Shown here one piece after another: positions 2,113 through 26,818 of a stretch of 35,258 nucleotides of DNA (position 1 is the stretch's first letter; each line of letters begins with the position of its first letter). The stretch is taken from IMG/VR virus record IMGVR_UViG_3300045988_142641; one strand, written 5' to 3'. A program made the translations under genes and the position numbers. The DNA comes from a virus. Taxonomy: Duplodnaviria > Heunggongvirae > Uroviricota > Caudoviricetes. The notes beneath the pieces were generated by a model. It searched no databases. It was not told where the DNA came from and saw only the letters and a program-made list of their open reading frames with translations.

Positions 2113-4560
2113 TTAACCGTCATGCATCATGCTGGCACGGGCGCGCGCACGTTTATCCCGCTCGTATTTTTCGAGCGCATCCTGTAACTGGCGGTCGAGC
2201 TGTGTCCCCGGCGCAGTACCACCCGTCAGGCTGATGTGATATTCGTTTTTACTCTGGTCCACATAAGAGCGGCCAGCCGGTGCCGTGACCGGCTGATAAG
2301 CCTGATAGCCTGCATAAGAGCTGGTCGCCGGAATATAACCACCGGTGCCATACGTGGCGGCATGAGTTCTGGCGGCGGTCTGGTCAAGTGTGTCTGACTC
2401 TTTGTTGATAACACCGAGTTTTTCCAGTACCCAGTCAATACCGCTGCGCAGTTTGTTGAACGCATTAAGCGGCAGCATCAGCGCGTCAGCCAGTGCCTGC
2501 CCGAACATGACGCCCGTGTCACGGCAACGGTTCAGGGTGTCCTGGGTGGCTTTAACCGGAGCAATCAGGTTTGTAAACCACTGCCACGCGGCCTGTAACT
2601 TTTCGCCCAGCCAGTCAAACACCGGTTTCAGTGGCGTGAACAGTTCCCCCACCGGCGCAAAGGCCGCTTTCAGCCCTTCCACCACACCGCCAAAGAATGC
2701 GCTGACAGGCTCCCAGTATTTACGGATAAGCAACGCCCCGGCGACAATGGCAGCCACCACGGCCACAACCGGCCAGCTAATCGCCCCGATGGCCGTCATA
2801 ACGGCACTACCAACCGTCGTGAAGATTGCCCCCATTGCGCCTGCTGCCGCGATGATGGCATTGATGCCGGTGATAACCGGCCAGGCTATGAGGCCAATGG
2901 CACCGATGACACCAGTCAGCGCCAGTGCACCACCGACAATGATGCCGATGGTTGACGCCAGTGATTTGTTTTTCTGTATCCAGCCGTCGAGTTTTAACAC
3001 ATACTTTGTGGCCGTCTGCGTGAGATTACGCAGTGCGCCTTCCTGTTGGTCAAACAGGTCAGTCCCCACCGCCTCATAAGCGGACTGAAACTCCTTAAAG
3101 TCACCGCCGAGGTTATCCTGCATGATATTTACCAGCTCGGCGGTCTTCCCGTCTGAGGCTTTAAACGCAGCGGTCAGTTTGTCCAGCTTTCCGGTTGAGG
3201 CGGCAGTCATCAGCACGGCGGCGGCTGAGCTGGCCTCCTCCCCGAAAATAGTTTTCATGTATTCAGCCTGCTGGGCAGTACCGAGCCGGTTTTTCTCAAA
3301 ACTGGCCTGCATTTCTTTCAGAATGGTAAATATTGGCCGGGTGTTTCCCTTGCTGTCTGAGGTTTTCACTCCAAGCTCTTTGAGTGCATCCCATGCTTTT
3401 CCCGTCGGTGCCTGCAGGCGGCTTAACACGGCACGGCTTCCCGTCCCCGCCATTGAGCCTGTGATTTTTGCATCATGCAGCGCCCCGACCATTGAGGCGG
3501 TTTCTTCAATGCTGACACCGGCATTTTTTGCCACAGGTGCGGCATAGGTCAGCGCATCGCTCATGCCGTCAAAATCGGCGGCGGTTTTGTTCATCGTCAT
3601 GGAGAGAACATCCCCGATATGAGCGACCTTATCGTTTGAAAGCTGAAAGGCGGATTTCATCCCCATCAGCAGGGCGGCGTTTTCTTCCATCGTGCGGCGG
3701 TTCGCCAGCGCCATATTCAGCGTGACCGGCGTTGCCGCCTGAATGGCATCAACATCCCCACCCGCTTTCGCGATGATTATCTGTGCACCGGCCGCATCAT
3801 CCGCCGAGGCTGCGGTATTGTCACCGAGCTGGCGCGCCTGTTTGCGTAGTGCGGTCATTTCGGCGGAGTCTTTTGCCACTCCGAGCACGGCCTGCAATTC
3901 TGAGTTTTTCTGCGCAAACTCATAACCGGGCATCAGCAGCTTAACTCCGGCCATCGTTCCCGCCGCCGCAATCCCCACACCGGCAGCGCCCACCGAGGCC
4001 ATATTTCCGGCCAGTTCCTTTCCGGCCTGATAACGCTGTTTGACTGCGTTAAGTTTTGCCTGTTGCGCACTGACACGCGCCAGCGCATCACGCTGACGGT
4101 TAAGCTGTGCGGTGGTTTCACTGATACGTTTTTTCAGTCCCTGCTCATCATGTGCAAGATTGCGGGTATTAATTCCCACAGCGGCCAGTTCCCGCTGCTG
4201 GCGTTTAACGGAATCCGTCAGGCGGTTATATTTCGCCTGTAAGTCCTCCGCCGCACGCTTTGCGGATTCCAGCACTTTCGCCTGAGCACGGGTCGGACGT
4301 TCGGTGTTTTTAAACTGTGTGGCAAGGGCTTCGGCTTCCTGCCGTGCCTTTTCAAGTGCATGACCAGTCACGGCAAGCTGTGCACTGGTCTTGCGGAATC
4401 CCTCAATACGGGATGCGTGACCGTTCAGCTCGCGCAGTGATTTTTGTGTTTCCCGGATATCCCCCGACAGCGACTTACTCGCTGTACGGATGGATTTAAA
4501 CGGGCGGGATGCCTGGTCAACAGCCCTGAGCAATACCTGTAATTTTACATTGTTACTCAT
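2113..4560 (-). CDS. T: tail tape measure protein T (815 aa)
   Basis: 815 aa, Ala/Gly-rich with a central hydrophobic segment and coiled-coil-like N-terminus; position after E/E'; size equals P2 gpT. Confidence 0.9.
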   Translation of the reverse strand: MSNNVKLQVLLRAVDQASRPFKSIRTASKSLSGDIRETQKSLRELNGHASRIEGFRKTSAQLAVTGHALEKARQEAEALATQFKNTERPTRAQAKVLESAKRAAEDLQAKYNRLTDSVKRQQRELAAVGINTRNLAHDEQGLKKRISETTAQLNRQRDALARVSAQQAKLNAVKQRYQAGKELAGNMASVGAAGVGIAAAGTMAGVKLLMPGYEFAQKNSELQAVLGVAKDSAEMTALRKQARQLGDNTAASADDAAGAQIIIAKAGGDVDAIQAATPVTLNMALANRRTMEENAALLMGMKSAFQLSNDKVAHIGDVLSMTMNKTAADFDGMSDALTYAAPVAKNAGVSIEETASMVGALHDAKITGSMAGTGSRAVLSRLQAPTGKAWDALKELGVKTSDSKGNTRPIFTILKEMQASFEKNRLGTAQQAEYMKTIFGEEASSAAAVLMTAASTGKLDKLTAAFKASDGKTAELVNIMQDNLGGDFKEFQSAYEAVGTDLFDQQEGALRNLTQTATKYVLKLDGWIQKNKSLASTIGIIVGGALALTGVIGAIGLIAWPVITGINAIIAAAGAMGAIFTTVGSAVMTAIGAISWPVVAVVAAIVAGALLIRKYWEPVSAFFGGVVEGLKAAFAPVGELFTPLKPVFDWLGEKLQAAWQWFTNLIAPVKATQDTLNRCRDTGVMFGQALADALMLPLNAFNKLRSGIDWVLEKLGVINKESDTLDQTAARTHAATYGTGGYIPATSSYAGYQAYQPVTAPAGRSYVDQSKNEYHISLTGGTAPGTQLDRQLQDALEKYERDKRARARASMMHDG

Positions 4561-4980
4561 TCGTGTTTCCGCTTCGCCGGAGCGCCTTTTCGCGCCATGT
4601 GATGAGTTCGGTCAGGCTCATGGGATACAGTTCTGATGGCGGCCAGTGAAATATCACTGCCACATCCGCCATCAGGTCATCGACCGACAGATTTTTCGGA
4701 AACGTCACTGTACCGAGTTCGGCGACAAAAAACCGACCACCTTACCGGCCAGCGCCACAAGGTCAGGCAGTTCCAGTGCGGCGACTTCCTGCTCGGTCAG
4801 CATCGGTGCAGTCATGCGCGGCAGCACCTTAATCAGTGCATCGACTTCGGAGTTCGCGACCGCAGCCAGACTGACACCGCGCAGCGTCCCGGCATTGGGT
4901 TTCATCAGCGTGACCTGTTCGATGACCTGCTCACCACGCTTGACCGGATTGTCCAGGGTAATCACATTTTCTTTGTTCAT
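4553..4980 (-). CDS. E': tail assembly chaperone E+E' (programmed -1 frameshift product, ~142 aa)
   Basis: After the -1 slip at T_TTT_TTG (plus 4726-4732) my hand translation of the -1 frame runs ...VAELGTVTFPKNLSVDDLMADVAVIFHWPPSELYPMSLTELITWREKALRRSGNTNE* to a TAA at 4553-4555, just inside the T start. Confidence 0.75.
4705..4980 (-). CDS. E: tail assembly chaperone E (91 aa, zero-frame product)
   Basis: 91-aa ORF ending ...VGFLSPNSVQ*; contains the slippery heptamer near its 3' end. Confidence 0.85.
   Translation of the reverse strand: MNKENVITLDNPVKRGEQVIEQVTLMKPNAGTLRGVSLAAVANSEVDALIKVLPRMTAPMLTEQEVAALELPDLVALAGKVVGFLSPNSVQ
4726..4732 (-). other. -1 ribosomal frameshift slippery heptamer TTTTTTG
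   Basis: Plus-strand caaaaaa equals minus-strand TTTTTTG, in the zero-frame phasing GG T TTT TTG near the end of E. Confidence 0.75.
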
Positions 4981-5008
4981 GGTTTTCTCACTTCTGAATC
5001 AGGGTTAA

Positions 5009-5029
5009 CCGGTCAGCCTGGCTGACCGG
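5009..5029 (-). promoter_or_regulatory. GC-rich hairpin between FII and E
   Basis: ccggtcagc-ctg-gctgaccgg, a 9-bp perfect stem; no clear T-run, so function (attenuator or RNA-stability element) is uncertain. Confidence 0.3.
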
Positions 5030-5036
5030 ATGAAAA

Positions 5037-5555
5037 TCACAGGCCGATATTGCGGCGGTGTTGCTCCAGCCGGTCGACGCCGTTCACCTTCTCAATCATG
5101 TTGATGGTGTCGATTTCGACCAGCTCCTTACCGTCCATCGTCAGCCGGAAATAGGTGCAGACCACGGAGATTTTCGACTCAGTGTCTTCTCCCTGTTTCC
5201 CCTCGCCGGTGTCGATTTCTTTCTGACGTCCACGCATGACCACCTCGACGGCCACCGTTTCGCCGGTATCGTCGCGCTGGTAAGAGCCAGCAAAACGAAT
5301 CGGTACGGCATCCACGCCGGTTGCGGCGTAAAGCTCCCAGATAACCGAATTCGGGAAGCCCCCGAGCGACCACTCCATTGACAGCGCATCGTCATCAAGG
5401 CCGAGGTCTACCGGTGCGCTGCCGTTCATCCCCGCACCGCGATAGTTTTCGAGCTTACGGGTCAGTTTTGGCAGCGTGACGGACTTTGCAACGCCCTGAT
5501 AGCTGTAGCCGTTCAGAAAGACGTTCATTAACTTGAGTTTGCGCGGCATTGCCAT
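5037..5555 (-). CDS. FII: tail tube protein FII (172 aa)
   Basis: 172-aa ORF directly downstream of the sheath gene; P2 synteny and size. Confidence 0.85.
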   Translation of the reverse strand: MAMPRKLKLMNVFLNGYSYQGVAKSVTLPKLTRKLENYRGAGMNGSAPVDLGLDDDALSMEWSLGGFPNSVIWELYAATGVDAVPIRFAGSYQRDDTGETVAVEVVMRGRQKEIDTGEGKQGEDTESKISVVCTYFRLTMDGKELVEIDTINMIEKVNGVDRLEQHRRNIGL

Positions 5556-5567
5556 CGGTCAGGCTCC

Positions 5568-6758
5568 TTAATTGCTGTTAACCGAAGTGACCAGATTTGC
5601 CAGGTATTTATCGGTAATACGCTGGCGCAGGGTCAGGTTTTCAAGAGGAGGCACCGGTGTATAGTCGTAGTCGATATACAGTTTTCCGGCCTTGAGGGTT
5701 TCCGCATCGTTGGATTCTTCGCTGAACCAGCAGGTCGCATCCACGATATAGCCGTTTGTTTTCAGCTCACGGAATTTGGCATTGATGCCGTCAACGATGT
5801 CGCGAATCAGCGTTGCGGTGATGGGCTTGTCCACCGCCCACATGTGCGCCTCAGCCATCGTGTCGGCCAGCACCTGCGCGGTGCGGGTGTAGTTTTCAAA
5901 GAGGAACAGCGGGTCATCAGAGCAGGTACGGTTACCCCAGAAGCGGAAACCGTCGCGGCGAATCAGCGTTGTGACGCCTGACTCGTTAAGCAAGTCAGCA
6001 TCGGTGCCGGACTCCTGCAAATCCCAGAATACAGAGGCGCTGATGCCGGTAACACCGTTCACCCCGACATTGGACAGCGTTTTATGCCAGCCCTGCTCCT
6101 GGTCAATTCTGGCACGCAGACCCAGCGCACGGGCGGTGGCATACGCGGTGGCGGTAGTACTGGTGACCGTATCCCATGCGAGGAAATCCGGCCAGATGAC
6201 CATCAGCTCACGCTGGCTGAAATTCTGACGGTAGGCTTTCACCTCGGAAATGGTTTTACAGCCCCATGCGCTGATATACCCGAAAGCGCGCAGCTTCTGA
6301 CAGACGGATGCCAGTGCAACAGCCACCTCTTTGGTATCCAGTCCCGGCACACCGAGAATACGCGGTTTAACACCGGTTACCGACTCCGCCGCCAGCAGTG
6401 CTTTTAGTCCGGTGTACTGACCGTTTTCGTCGGTGGTGCCGATGATATTGGAAACGGTCTGCGCGAGTTTCGTTTCCTCGTCGTCGCCGGCGCCGTCTTC
6501 CACACGCACGACAACGGTGACCGGTTTTGACTGGTCAGCGATGGCCTGCAACGATGCCGCCAGCGTGCCTTTTTTACCGGCCTTTGCAATTGCGCTCTGC
6601 ACATTGGTAATCAGCACCGGTTTATTGAGGGGGAAGGTTTCCGCATCCGCATCGCTGGCCGTGCAGACCATGCCGACAATGGCAGTGGATACGGTGGAAA
6701 TGACACGGGTGCCGTCGTTAATCTCCAGCACCTGCACGCCGTGATGATAGTCACTCAT
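5568..6758 (-). CDS. FI: tail sheath protein FI (396 aa)
   Basis: 396-aa ORF; first gene of the FI-FII-E-T-U-D tail operon; size equals P2 FI. Confidence 0.9.
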   Translation of the reverse strand: MSDYHHGVQVLEINDGTRVISTVSTAIVGMVCTASDADAETFPLNKPVLITNVQSAIAKAGKKGTLAASLQAIADQSKPVTVVVRVEDGAGDDEETKLAQTVSNIIGTTDENGQYTGLKALLAAESVTGVKPRILGVPGLDTKEVAVALASVCQKLRAFGYISAWGCKTISEVKAYRQNFSQRELMVIWPDFLAWDTVTSTTATAYATARALGLRARIDQEQGWHKTLSNVGVNGVTGISASVFWDLQESGTDADLLNESGVTTLIRRDGFRFWGNRTCSDDPLFLFENYTRTAQVLADTMAEAHMWAVDKPITATLIRDIVDGINAKFRELKTNGYIVDATCWFSEESNDAETLKAGKLYIDYDYTPVPPLENLTLRQRITDKYLANLVTSVNSN

Positions 6759-7285: not shown

Positions 7286-8155
7286 ATGATTTTTGATGAT
7301 ATTGATGGTTATTACGATTATCGGGAACTTCAATCCATTGCTGATGAAAAAAGAGTGCTGAATAAAGTCAATGCTTTTCGTCAGGAATTCACCGCTCTTG
7401 CTAGAGAATGGTCTCCTGAACGTAATTCTCAATGGATTTGCCGTATCTATTTCTGTACTAAAATGATTCTAAATGCAACTGTCGTTCTAAAACAGGCTGA
7501 ATTCGCCGAAGAAAAAAACCTGAGGGCAGCCATTCCTTACTTTCACTATTATGCTATGCTCTCAATCTTACGTTGTGTGGTCCTAACTTTGCCGACTGAA
7601 GACTGGGATAATGAGGATATTCTGAGTATCTCTCATAAAAAAGCGAGAGACAAAACCAGAGAATGGTTGGCTCGATATGATAGAGCACTGGCCACACGAT
7701 TTGATGATTTCTTCCTGACCCTTAAATCAAACAGAGAATTACTATCATATAAGGCGCCTGCCAGTGCAGACCGAAACATTAGCAACCAAGATGAGGTAAT
7801 ATATTTCTGTACTTTACTAGCAGAAGTCGCGCAATTTAACACGGCTATATTGCATAACGCTGTTGTTAGACACGCATCAGAGGATGATTTCGTTGTGTTC
7901 GATCATGACATGGCCCGCATTTATAACGTTGAGATTGAAGGGAAACGTTTCTATGATAGCGAGGACAGATATCGTCTGGATTATCTGAGACGAAAAGGCA
8001 ATATTCCTCACAGCATTCACATGACCATGACAGAGGGGCAGACTGAAGATTTCATTGGTGCCTGGGATGCTCATGACGATGATGTCGATAACGAAGAAAG
8101 CCGTTTTTACTCTGGCTCACCTTCATCATGGCAGGACATATTCGATATTCCCTGA
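7286..8155 (+). CDS. hypothetical protein (289 aa), AT-rich cargo gene
   Basis: Strong SD (aaggag, 5-nt spacer, ATG); AT-rich codon usage unlike the phage backbone; acidic C-terminus; no motif I recognise. Confidence 0.65.
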   Translation: MIFDDIDGYYDYRELQSIADEKRVLNKVNAFRQEFTALAREWSPERNSQWICRIYFCTKMILNATVVLKQAEFAEEKNLRAAIPYFHYYAMLSILRCVVLTLPTEDWDNEDILSISHKKARDKTREWLARYDRALATRFDDFFLTLKSNRELLSYKAPASADRNISNQDEVIYFCTLLAEVAQFNTAILHNAVVRHASEDDFVVFDHDMARIYNVEIEGKRFYDSEDRYRLDYLRRKGNIPHSIHMTMTEGQTEDFIGAWDAHDDDVDNEESRFYSGSPSSWQDIFDIP

Positions 8156-8274
8156 ATCATAAAAATAATTGCCAATCAATAAAACACCATACCTTTTCAA
8201 TTTTAATGGTGTAATCAGGTCGATAACCCCCTTGATGTGACCGGCTACCCGTTATCAACACTAAGTGCTGTTCG

Positions 8275-8610
8275 CTACTTCCGTTTTAGGCACAGGGCTG
8301 CTATTGCAGCCCTGACAACCTTAGACTCAATCGATTCAGAGATCTCTAACGCATCATCTACTTCAATGCCCAGATAACGGACCGTGCTTTCCAGTTTCTT
8401 ATGGCCTAACAGAAATTGGATCACTCGTAGATTCTTGGTTTTCTTGTAGATGAGGCAAGGTTTTGTTCTTCTCATGGAATGTGTGCTGTAAAGCGAATCT
8501 TCGAGACCAAGCTTTTCTACCCACCCATGAAAGATTCGGTTGTATTGCCGGGTTGATATGTGCCGATTAGTTCCGATCCGAGATCGGAACAAGAAGTCTT
8601 TACTATGCAA
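8275..8610 (-). pseudogene. tyrosine recombinase/integrase C-terminal remnant (111 aa)
   Basis: Contains HSMRRT (HxxR), LLGH and a downstream Y in RYLG, i.e. the C-terminal catalytic motifs of a tyrosine recombinase, but lacks the N-terminal half and box I Arg. The upstream space is occupied by the 3' end of the 379-aa ORF. Confidence 0.6.
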
Positions 8611-8616
8611 ATTAAA

Positions 8617-8634
8617 AGGCTGTATACACAGCCT
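8617..8634 (-). terminator. hairpin downstream of the 379-aa ORF
   Basis: aggctgt-atac-acagcct (7-bp stem), followed on the minus strand by tttaatttg. Confidence 0.4.
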
Positions 8635-8645
8635 GTTAATTTATG

Positions 8646-19112: not shown

Positions 19113-19621
19113 CAGATTTGACTCACGATGCAGCGCGGCTTGTCCTGGATACGCGCCACCGCCCAGCGCATATCCCGCCACAGCTCATCAATAGTGCTGT
19201 CAATGCTGTCGGCCTTCTTGTCGCCTTTCGCACTGGCATCCACGCCGCGATAACGCTCATAAAGCGACGCGGTCGCCATCGCACACACGGCGCGCTCGTA
19301 GTAAAAAACCTTGATGCTTTCACCGTCGATATCGTCCGCCGGGACGTCAGCCAGACGCGTAAAACCGGCGGCAATTTTCTGTTCGCGGTACTCGTACAGC
19401 TCCGCATTCGTCTCCGCCATGCCTGACTTGATGGCCTCACGCAGACGGGCGGGGGCGACGGTCTGCTCAAGGCGCATACGTTCCCGGACGCGCTTCGGGT
19501 CGATATCGGGAAAAAAGAACGTGTTTTTAATCACCGGCTCGTCGCCTGCCGGTTGCGGGATGACCACCGTACCCTCACCGGACACGGGAGCCTCCTTTCG
19601 CGGAATAATCAGCGTCATCAT
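19112..19621 (-). CDS. L: head completion protein L (169 aa)
   Basis: From internal Met MMTLIIPRKEAPVSGEG..., 169 aa; the ORF track extension to 19681 is probably not translated. Confidence 0.8.
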   Translation of the reverse strand: MMTLIIPRKEAPVSGEGTVVIPQPAGDEPVIKNTFFFPDIDPKRVRERMRLEQTVAPARLREAIKSGMAETNAELYEYREQKIAAGFTRLADVPADDIDGESIKVFYYERAVCAMATASLYERYRGVDASAKGDKKADSIDSTIDELWRDMRWAVARIQDKPRCIVSQI

Positions 19622-19720
19622 GACTACCTCAGAAAAGTCGGGCGGTGGACGCCGGTACAATGTCAGGTGATTCACCCACACTGACCGGCGTGCCGCCCTG
19701 GCGCGGGGCGCATTCGGTTG

Positions 19721-20464
19721 TTAACTGGCTTTCTTTTTCGGGCGTCCACGTTTTGCCGGTGTCGCACTCCGGGTCTTACGCGGGGCACGGGTGGCCGCTT
19801 TGGGCTGCGGCTCCGGCTTCGGTTTCAGCTCCCGTTCCAGTCGTTCAATCTCTTTTTTGACGCCTGCCTGACAGTCGAGCTGTGTCGCACGTTGCAGGTG
19901 CGCCAGCGCACCTGCGGCATCACCAGCGTCACGCAGAAACAGACCGGTGATTTTGTGCAGCTTTGCGCGCACTTCATCAGGCATGTCAGCCGTGGCGGTC
20001 AGTTCAAGGGTGTCCGTCAGCAGGCGGGGATTCACAGACTCACCGGCAGCGTGAGCGCGCATGGCCGCAAGCGCCACCTCCTCGGTGAACATGTACGGCG
20101 GGGTGCGGCGGTGTTTACCCGGCATGGTCAGACCGTACTTCAGGGCATAACGGGCAATCTCCAGCGCACCGGCAATATCGCCGGTATCCAGACGCCACAG
20201 CATGACCGTCATCAGAATGTCATCCTGTGCACCTTTGCCCTGCTCCAGCACGCCGTTCACCCACGGCAACCAGAACGGCAGCAGTTCGCGTTTTTTCGCG
20301 GCCTTAAGCTCTTTTGAATAAATCGCTTTCAGTGTGCGCTGGTCTGCGGCGAGCTTAACCAGCATCTGCTCATAGACAGTTGCATGTCGCAGCGGGGCGG
20401 CTTCCCGCTGCGCGGTCATCGCTGCCGAGACCCGCATCATGTGGCGCTGTGCGGGACTCGTCAT
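19721..20464 (-). CDS. M: terminase small subunit / endonuclease M (247 aa)
   Basis: 247 aa with a basic Lys/Arg/Pro-rich C-terminus; P2 position between N and L. Confidence 0.85.
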   Translation of the reverse strand: MTSPAQRHMMRVSAAMTAQREAAPLRHATVYEQMLVKLAADQRTLKAIYSKELKAAKKRELLPFWLPWVNGVLEQGKGAQDDILMTVMLWRLDTGDIAGALEIARYALKYGLTMPGKHRRTPPYMFTEEVALAAMRAHAAGESVNPRLLTDTLELTATADMPDEVRAKLHKITGLFLRDAGDAAGALAHLQRATQLDCQAGVKKEIERLERELKPKPEPQPKAATRAPRKTRSATPAKRGRPKKKAS

Positions 20465-25750: not shown

Positions 25751-26818
25751 TCATTTCTTAGCTTTCACAACCGGATGCGCGCGATCATGTCCACCGCCAC
25801 GATGCTTAGAAAATATAACCTTTTCATTAGTAAAAGGTTTTTGGCCATAGACACTATCATAGTGGAAAAAGACGTTCGGAAGATGAGGCACACGGATGAA
25901 TCCATACTTCACTCTAGTATCACCGATGACCCCAAAAACCCTTGTACTTACTGGGTAGCATAGTTCACCACAACGCATCACTAATTCATCTGCTGTTGGG
26001 CGTTCAGAAGGTTCCAATTTTAAACAATCTTCTATAAGTTTAATTATTTCATTTGCCAATGGCGCATACTGTCTATTTGAAAATATAAAGTCAGGGTAAG
26101 GAACATGCGTGCCAGAAAGTATATTTGGTATAGCCATATAACCAATACCAAAAGGGTATTTTCCAGTAAGAATCCTGAACATCATCGCACCCAATGCCCA
26201 AATATCTGTAGGTTTCGAAACCTTACCTTGACTCTGTATGATTTCCGGTGCCATATATGGCAAAGCCCCGATAGCCGTTTGCGAAGAACTAATTGAATCT
26301 TGACCATTTCTTGCAGCCTCATCAATTTCATCTCCGGCCATCTTTGAAATGCCGAAATCCGTAATTTTTATCTCTGTAGCATTGATACCACCGCCTACCA
26401 TTATATTTGAAGGTTTGAGGTCCCGGTGTATGACGTCAACATGATGCGAAGCAGACAGAGCTTTAGCTAAATTATGAAATATTTTAGCAGTTAAATATGG
26501 ATCAACACTTGAATAAGTGTCTAAAATAGCCTTATCCAAGTCAACTCCATCAATAAATTCCTCCGTTAAAAACTCTCTACCCTCATCATCAATGAAGTAA
26601 TCTAAGGTTTTAGCCACATTAGGATGATTAACTCTTGATGCTAATATTGCACTTCTATGAAACCTTTTTTCAGCAGATTTATTTTTGGGAGTTTTGAGAG
26701 CCACATGCCTCGAGAGAATATTATCCATTGCCAAATAAACTTTTTGCATACCGCCTTCACCAATCTCCCTCAATATTGTATATCTGCTAACTTGAATGCC
26801 TGGAGTCAGATTTATCAT
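25751..26818 (-). CDS. Hanks-type Ser/Thr protein kinase (355 aa), cargo
   Basis: G-loop GEGGMQKV, VALK lysine, catalytic loop HRDLKPSN, DFG, APE and DIWALG all present; SD GGAGG 7 nt upstream; ATGA overlap with the upstream kinase; ~60-aa C-terminal extension. Confidence 0.85.
   Translation of the reverse strand: MINLTPGIQVSRYTILREIGEGGMQKVYLAMDNILSRHVALKTPKNKSAEKRFHRSAILASRVNHPNVAKTLDYFIDDEGREFLTEEFIDGVDLDKAILDTYSSVDPYLTAKIFHNLAKALSASHHVDVIHRDLKPSNIMVGGGINATEIKITDFGISKMAGDEIDEAARNGQDSISSSQTAIGALPYMAPEIIQSQGKVSKPTDIWALGAMMFRILTGKYPFGIGYMAIPNILSGTHVPYPDFIFSNRQYAPLANEIIKLIEDCLKLEPSERPTADELVMRCGELCYPVSTRVFGVIGDTRVKYGFIRVPHLPNVFFHYDSVYGQKPFTNEKVIFSKHRGGGHDRAHPVVKAKK

Follow-up and report, generated by a model that had tools for sequence, protein, structure and literature searches.

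Evidence for programmed −1 ribosomal frameshifting of the P2 type in the tail-assembly chaperone gene of a P2-like (Peduovirus) genome

The closest described counterpart of the locus studied here is the E/E′ region of phage P2, in which E′ is reportedly essential for lytic growth and the E+E′ fusion is said to be made at roughly 10%. In the passages of PMC3091744 that deal with P2, which cite Christie et al. 2002 (J Bacteriol 184:6522; PMID 12426340) and Xu et al. 2004, a −1 shift at TTTTTTG gives rise to two proteins, E of 91 aa and E+E′ of 142 aa. It is stated there too that Burkholderia P2-like phages keep the frameshift site and that P2 is without a downstream structure (PMC3091744). The P2 RefSeq record (NC_001895) is annotated with E at 19430..19705 (NP_046781.1), a joined E+E′ coding sequence at 19430..19857 (NP_046780.1), and a "site of -1 translational frameshift" at 19685, which is the base right after the heptamer at 19678..19684. 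Yersinia phage L-413C is annotated alike, with a two-piece E+E′ coding sequence and a −1 frameshift. Another well-described system is the gpG/gpGT pair of phage lambda, where the short form and the shared domain bind the tape-measure protein and the T part binds the major tail protein, where the gpG:gpGT ratio is about 30:1, and where neither protein is found in virions (PMC5009743, summarizing Levin et al. 1993 and Xu et al. 2004, 2013, 2014).

We analysed a stretch of viral DNA of 35,258 nucleotides, referred to below as the window. A megablast search with it returned 82 phage records, 72 of them at 95–99% identity and all of Peduovirus type (Escherichia, Yersinia, Klebsiella and Salmonella phages). 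The first 25 kb of the window is 96.5% identical to P2 over 81% of its length and 97.7% identical to phage pro147, and these similarities indicate that the window is a P2-like (Peduovirus) genome. All features described below lie on the minus strand. The open reading frames and profile matches give the gene order FI-FII-E/E′-T-U-D, which is that of the P2 F operon, with E located between the tube gene FII and the tape-measure gene T. The sheath gene FI (6758..5568) neighbours FII (5037..5555), which encodes the tail tube protein (PF04985 Phage_tube, E 2e-60) and is directly upstream of E, and gene T (2113..4560) encodes the tail tape measure protein (PF10145, E 7e-45; phrog_28, "tail length tape measure protein", E 3.5e-253).

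Gene E occupies 4980..4705, from an ATG at 4980..4978 to a TGA at 4707..4705, and its computed translation is the 91-aa zero-frame product of the tail assembly chaperone gene. The heptamer TTTTTTG is found at 4732..4726, offset by 248 nt from the E start codon, where the E frame reads GG[T TTT TTG]. This is the X_XXY_YYZ phase of tandem slippage, T_TTT_TTG, with TTT as the P-site codon and TTG as the A-site codon. Reading in the −1 frame from the final G of the heptamer gives VAELGTVTFPKNLSVDDLMADVAVIFHWPPSELYPMSLTELITWREKALRRSGNTNE (VAELGTV...SGNTNE), which is the E′ extension (4553..4725) of 57 sense codons followed by a TAA at 4555..4553. The complete E+E′ coding region (4553..4980) thus specifies, by way of a −1 shift at the heptamer, a 142-aa fusion with the junction ...VVGFL/VAELG.... 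The end of E′ is overlapped by the T start codon (ATG 4560..4558) such that the E′ stop lies 3 nt inside T, and both are contained within ATGAGTAA. An earlier note on this DNA, made from the letters and a list of their open reading frames, had placed T_TTT_TTG near the 3′ end of E at 4726–4732 and had read the −1 frame as open for about 58 more codons to a TAA at 4553–4555, just inside the T start. The computed position, phase and translation agree with that first reading on each of these points, the figure of 58 being obtained when the stop is counted along with the 57 sense codons, and there is no early stop after the heptamer.

Upstream of the heptamer, the −1 frame is shut by a TAA at 4742..4744, where the frame-2 translation reads ...GR(stop)GGRFFVAELG. 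Because of this stop, E′ is without a long open lead-in of its own, and a productive shift is confined to the stretch of about 34 nt between that TAA and the E stop, in which the heptamer is the sole slippery site.

The comparison with P2 is very close. The 428-nt E/E′ segment of P2 aligns with that of the window without gaps and with 11 differences, and the heptamer and its immediate flanking bases are identical. The genes and their order, the codon position of the heptamer, the lengths of the two products (91 and 142 aa) and the ATGAGTAA overlap with T are all the same as well, and the P2 E+E′ protein (NP_046780.1) differs from the window fusion only by N29S and T91A, with a few silent changes in the DNA besides. 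To place the junction we used the rule that the zero frame is read through TTG and the G is then re-read. When it is applied to P2 DNA, this rule yields exactly NP_046780.1, which is also UniProt O64312 (TAPFS_BPP2, "Tail assembly protein E'").

Both halves of the predicted fusion belong to the protein families expected for the P2-type gpE/gpE+E′ tail assembly chaperone pair of Peduoviridae. Residues 7–85 in the E part match Pfam PF10109 Phage_TAC_7 (E 2.8e-12; 46.9 bits against a cut-off of 25), and E also matches phrog_103, "tail protein" (E 4e-43). In the −1-frame part, fusion residues 104–139 match Pfam PF06528 Phage_P2_GpE (E 1.2e-21; 76.3 bits against a cut-off of 23), and the extension matches phrog_1756 and phrog_6416. 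A scan of the fusion against NCBIfam gave no matching family, and a search of solved structures by sequence gave no meaningful match (best E 0.65). The frameshift supports the calling of E and T, as the earlier note holds, and the larger claim of the note, that this is the conserved tail-chaperone frameshift giving E and E+E′, is upheld by the neighbouring genes, the P2 alignment, the two Pfam families and the survey of related loci described next.

For this survey, a collection of species-representative genomes was scanned once with the fusion protein, which gave 79 loci from Escherichia, Kosakonia, Yersinia, Serratia, Rahnella, Cupriavidus, Ralstonia, Sphingobium and Sphingomonas. These loci range from Enterobacterales to alpha- and beta-proteobacteria, covering three proteobacterial classes, and identity in the E part goes down to about 40%. 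In 77 of the 79, E′ lies in the −1 frame relative to E and an in-phase T_TTT_TTG or T_TTT_TTA is present at the equivalent place. The two exceptions are L059, which has a disrupted E gene, and L080, in which no N-terminal part was detected. The former is from Enterobacter sp. EA-1, and its interrupted E part gives it the look of a decayed prophage copy. No stop interrupts the −1 frame between the heptamer and the conserved E′ motif in any of the 77 loci, whose linkers vary from 17 to 45 codons, and the motif itself (ADVAVIFHWPP...L.EL..WR..A..RS) is kept out to the alpha-proteobacteria.

Within the heptamer, the six T's are invariant among 77 distinct sequences and the seventh base is G in 69 of them and A in 8. 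Several of these bases are at positions where the E protein sequence leaves a choice of codon. In 57 distinct sequences from Enterobacterales, Phe is encoded by TTT in 100%, the Gly codon before it, which is four-fold degenerate, has T as its wobble base in 100%, and Leu is encoded by TTG or TTA only, while the mean majority fraction at wobble positions elsewhere in E is 0.70. The fixed wobble bases of the heptamer show that selection acts on the nucleotides as such. Substitutions in the E′-specific region, when counted by −1-frame codon position, number 291, 193 and 711 at positions 1, 2 and 3, an excess at the third position as expected of a coding frame, and the −1 frame is under purifying selection. 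A third-position excess is seen again in the linker from the E stop to Met104 (88, 60 and 183), and this bias shows translation of the −1 frame from the heptamer onward and not just from the internal methionine.

We also looked for elements that could stimulate a shift at the heptamer. The 90 nt downstream of the heptamer fold at −30.2 kcal/mol (z = −1.68), and the consensus energy calculated by alifold over 47 distinct relatives is just −5.2 kcal/mol; thus, no conserved stimulatory RNA structure was found downstream of the heptamer by folding and alifold. A small CCG...CGG hairpin that begins 3 nt past the heptamer was considered as a stimulator and rejected, being too near to the heptamer and explained by the Ala-Glu-Phe/Leu-Gly coding of E′. 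An Rfam scan of 4300..5200 gave two chance matches only (E 0.39), far under the gathering scores. The rejection of a downstream structure agrees with what is stated for P2 (PMC3091744), and since no stimulatory element was found, the efficiency of the shift would be set by the heptamer alone, as is reported for P2 in the same source.

A Shine-Dalgarno-like AAGGTGG (4743..4737) precedes the heptamer by 4 nt. Its wobble bases are well conserved among the 57 distinct Enterobacterales sequences (Lys AAG 96% and Val GTG 95%, against the mean of 0.70), and conservation of the element does not extend to the beta- and alpha-proteobacterial loci. We consider it unlikely that AAGGTGG is a functional modulator of the P2-group frameshift, acting for example by ribosome pausing or anchoring through pairing with 16S rRNA at a spacing unlike that of dnaX, and it may sit outside the frameshift signal. 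We know of no description of such a modulator for the P2 group.

Could the slippery heptamer and the open −1 frame be a coincidence of a T-rich heptamer with a frame that has no function? Taken as a raw pattern, the two together are not statistically compelling. TTTTTTG occurs 21 times in the window when both strands are counted, the ORFs of at least 80 aa in the window contain 91 in-phase X_XXY_YYZ heptamers, and 7.8% of positions in long ORFs are followed by a −1 frame with 57 or more open codons. The case for a frameshift therefore rests on the homology (the Pfam match of the −1-frame part at E 1.2e-21) and on the conservation of the arrangement in 77 loci of three proteobacterial classes. 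When these are considered along with the invariant heptamer and the substitution pattern expected of purifying selection on the −1 frame, coincidence is refuted, and we give it virtually no chance of being correct.

We considered two other explanations. In one, RNA polymerase would slip on the T6 run and add an extra U, and the minority of mRNAs so altered would be read normally into E′. The six-T run needed for this is present and invariant, and one inserted U would indeed bring E′ in frame, with the junction then reading G-F-F-V. However, the run is exactly six in 77 of 77 distinct sequences, with no T directly before it and only G or A directly after it, and efficient transcriptional slippage in bacteria usually needs longer homopolymer runs. 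Moreover, every locus keeps the codon phase T_TTT_TTR, on which tRNA re-pairing depends and polymerase slippage does not, so we regard transcriptional slippage as very unlikely. The remaining possibility is that there is no frameshift and E′ is a separate small gene with a start of its own, either the ATG of Met104 (39 aa) or a GTG at 4708 (51 aa). Automatic pipelines do annotate the 39-aa form, on about 1000 contigs, PF06528 and phrog_6416 cover the 39-aa part only, and the 51-aa GTG ORF (4553..4708) is in the ORF list. Yet the ATG has no Shine-Dalgarno sequence before it (its context is gtcgatgacctgATG), Met104 is replaced by Ile or Val in 10 related loci, and the GTG is not conserved, being for example a Thr codon in L031. 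Nor would a separate gene account for the fixed synonymous sites of the heptamer, or for a −1 frame that is open from heptamer to motif in 77 of 77 loci and a linker whose substitutions (88/60/183) are of the coding type, and the fusion has been reported in the literature (PMC3091744). We therefore hold a separate E′ gene to be extremely improbable.

Given the anatomy, the codon phase, the homology of both halves, the conservation and the purifying selection on the −1 frame established here, we conclude that the locus is, with very high probability, a P2-type programmed −1 ribosomal frameshift in the tail-assembly chaperone gene. Actual production of the fusion through a −1 shift at this site is taken from the literature on the near-identical P2 sequence, as given in the P2 passages of PMC3091744. 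By analogy, the slip would be a tandem ribosomal one. The majority of ribosomes would make the 91-aa E and halt at the TGA at 4707..4705, and a minority would slip back by one base when tRNA-Phe is in the P site on UUU and tRNA-Leu is in the A site on UUG of U_UUU_UUG. The slipped tRNAs would re-pair on UUU_UUU, and 57 more codons would then be read in the −1 frame to produce the 142-aa E+E′ with the junction ...GFL-VAEL.... In this way, the frameshift would set the ratio of two proteins with a common N-terminal domain. Tandem ribosomal slippage would be expected to give the junction tryptic peptide VVGFLVAELGTVTFPK, which contains G-F-L-V, and the peptide VVGFFVAELGTVTFPK, with G-F-F-V, would point instead to transcriptional slippage or to a slip of the P-site tRNA only. 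The roles of the two proteins in a contractile-tailed phage can be proposed from lambda. If the pair works as gpG/gpGT do, the E domain common to both products would coat the tape-measure protein T, and the E′ extension would bring in the tube protein FII, by which the tail would polymerize to its proper length. Neither E nor E+E′ would be expected in the finished virion.

The E/E′ frameshift found here is already known, in that its site, mechanism and conservation are documented for P2 and its relatives, and it presents no new biology. Its value is for annotation. The exact 91-aa sequence of E is present on at least 1000 public contigs under the label "phage tail assembly protein", and on about 1000 contigs the 39-aa MADVAV...NTNE goes under the name "GpE family phage tail protein". 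An exact copy of the window's 142-aa fusion is absent from the protein collection, since the fusion goes uncalled by pipelines. Pipelines thus usually call E and a spurious 39-aa "GpE family phage tail protein" and miss the 142-aa E+E′, and recognition of the frameshift leads to the correct proteome of this prophage.

Among known −1 frameshifts, that of E. coli dnaX takes place at A_AAA_AAG, which has a Shine-Dalgarno element on its upstream side and a hairpin on its downstream side. The locus described here is similar in having an X_XXX_XXG tandem-slippage heptamer with a Shine-Dalgarno-like sequence upstream, which is AAGGTGG in our case, although the dnaX element is said to be about 10 nt from its heptamer and AAGGTGG is 4 nt from ours. 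In contrast to dnaX, no downstream hairpin is conserved here, and the products and biology of the two systems are unrelated. In lambda the slippery heptamer is G_GGA_AAG, as opposed to T_TTT_TTG here. There is no detectable sequence similarity between the lambda proteins and E/E′, for which Pfam gives PF10109 and PF06528 only, and P2, unlike lambda, has a contractile tail with a sheath, such that binding of the tube protein is a putative activity of E′. What the two systems share is their organization. As with E and E+E′, gpG and gpGT have a common N-terminus, the −1 shift occurs near the end of the upstream ORF, and the gene is situated between the major tail (tube) and tape-measure genes. 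This is the pattern of the conserved tail assembly chaperone frameshift of long-tailed dsDNA phages (Xu, Hendrix and Duda 2004), and it is what we find here: two overlapping ORFs lie between the major tail and tape-measure genes with a slippery sequence, and the second ORF is without a convincing start of its own, having no Shine-Dalgarno sequence before Met104 and neither that Met nor the GTG conserved. In lambda, as is proposed here, the short form predominates over the long one, in proportions that are set by the efficiency of the frameshift (PMC5009743).

Immediately upstream of the slippery heptamer (TTTTTTG, 4732..4726, minus strand), at which ribosomes would shift by −1 to produce the 142-aa fusion of the tail chaperone E with E′, we find a Shine-Dalgarno (SD)-like sequence, TAAGGTGGT (4736..4744, minus strand), that shares 8 of 9 bases with TAAGGAGGT. 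The 3′ limit of TAAGGTGGT lies 4 nt upstream of the heptamer, and the element includes the TAA stop by which the −1 frame is closed on its upstream side. When wobble positions were compared among 57 distinct Enterobacterales relatives, those of two codons within the element, Lys AAG and Val GTG, were 96% and 95% conserved, compared with a mean of 0.70 for wobble sites elsewhere in E; the beta- and alpha-proteobacterial relatives are without the SD-like element.

Among the 79 related loci, only L059 (CP025776.1, Enterobacter sp. EA-1) has E and E′ parts that are not in a −1 relationship, and a search of this locus for the slippery heptamer did not find one. Its match to E is shortened to about 53 codons, so L059 is probably a prophage copy that has decayed.

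The public databases routinely list the E′ tail as a protein of its own, a 39-aa "GpE family phage tail protein" carried on about 1000 contigs, and it is only in curated phage records, P2 among them, that the true 142-aa fusion appears. For P2-like prophages this is a systematic annotation gap.

The whole window is essentially a single P2-like (Peduovirus) genome, with ogr/D at its left end and an integrase gene (337 aa, 34111..35124, plus strand) at its right end. Of the phage records, that of Escherichia phage pro147 is closest, covering 83% of the first 25 kb at 97.7% identity. A three-gene cargo cluster (25751..29038, minus strand) had no match among the P2 core gene families tested. It encodes two Ser/Thr protein kinases of 355 and 354 aa (Pfam PF00069, E 6e-45 and 2e-42), which also match PADLOC mad6 / PD-T4-6 with E down to 1e-54, and a PP2C-like phosphatase of 388 aa (Pfam PF13672, E 5e-06). 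The cluster looks like a candidate module for anti-phage defence or lysogenic conversion, placed where the prophage is variable.

A further variable region, at 7286..11056 between the sheath gene FI and the tail-fibre genes, contains three sizeable ORFs of 289 aa (7286..8155, plus strand), 379 aa (8646..9785, minus strand) and 314 aa (10112..11056, plus strand), none of which has a Pfam or PADLOC match, along with a C-terminal tyrosine recombinase fragment of 111 aa (8275..8610, minus strand; PF00589, E 1e-11). In P2, whose map runs in the opposite orientation to that of the window, this region corresponds to the position of fun(Z).
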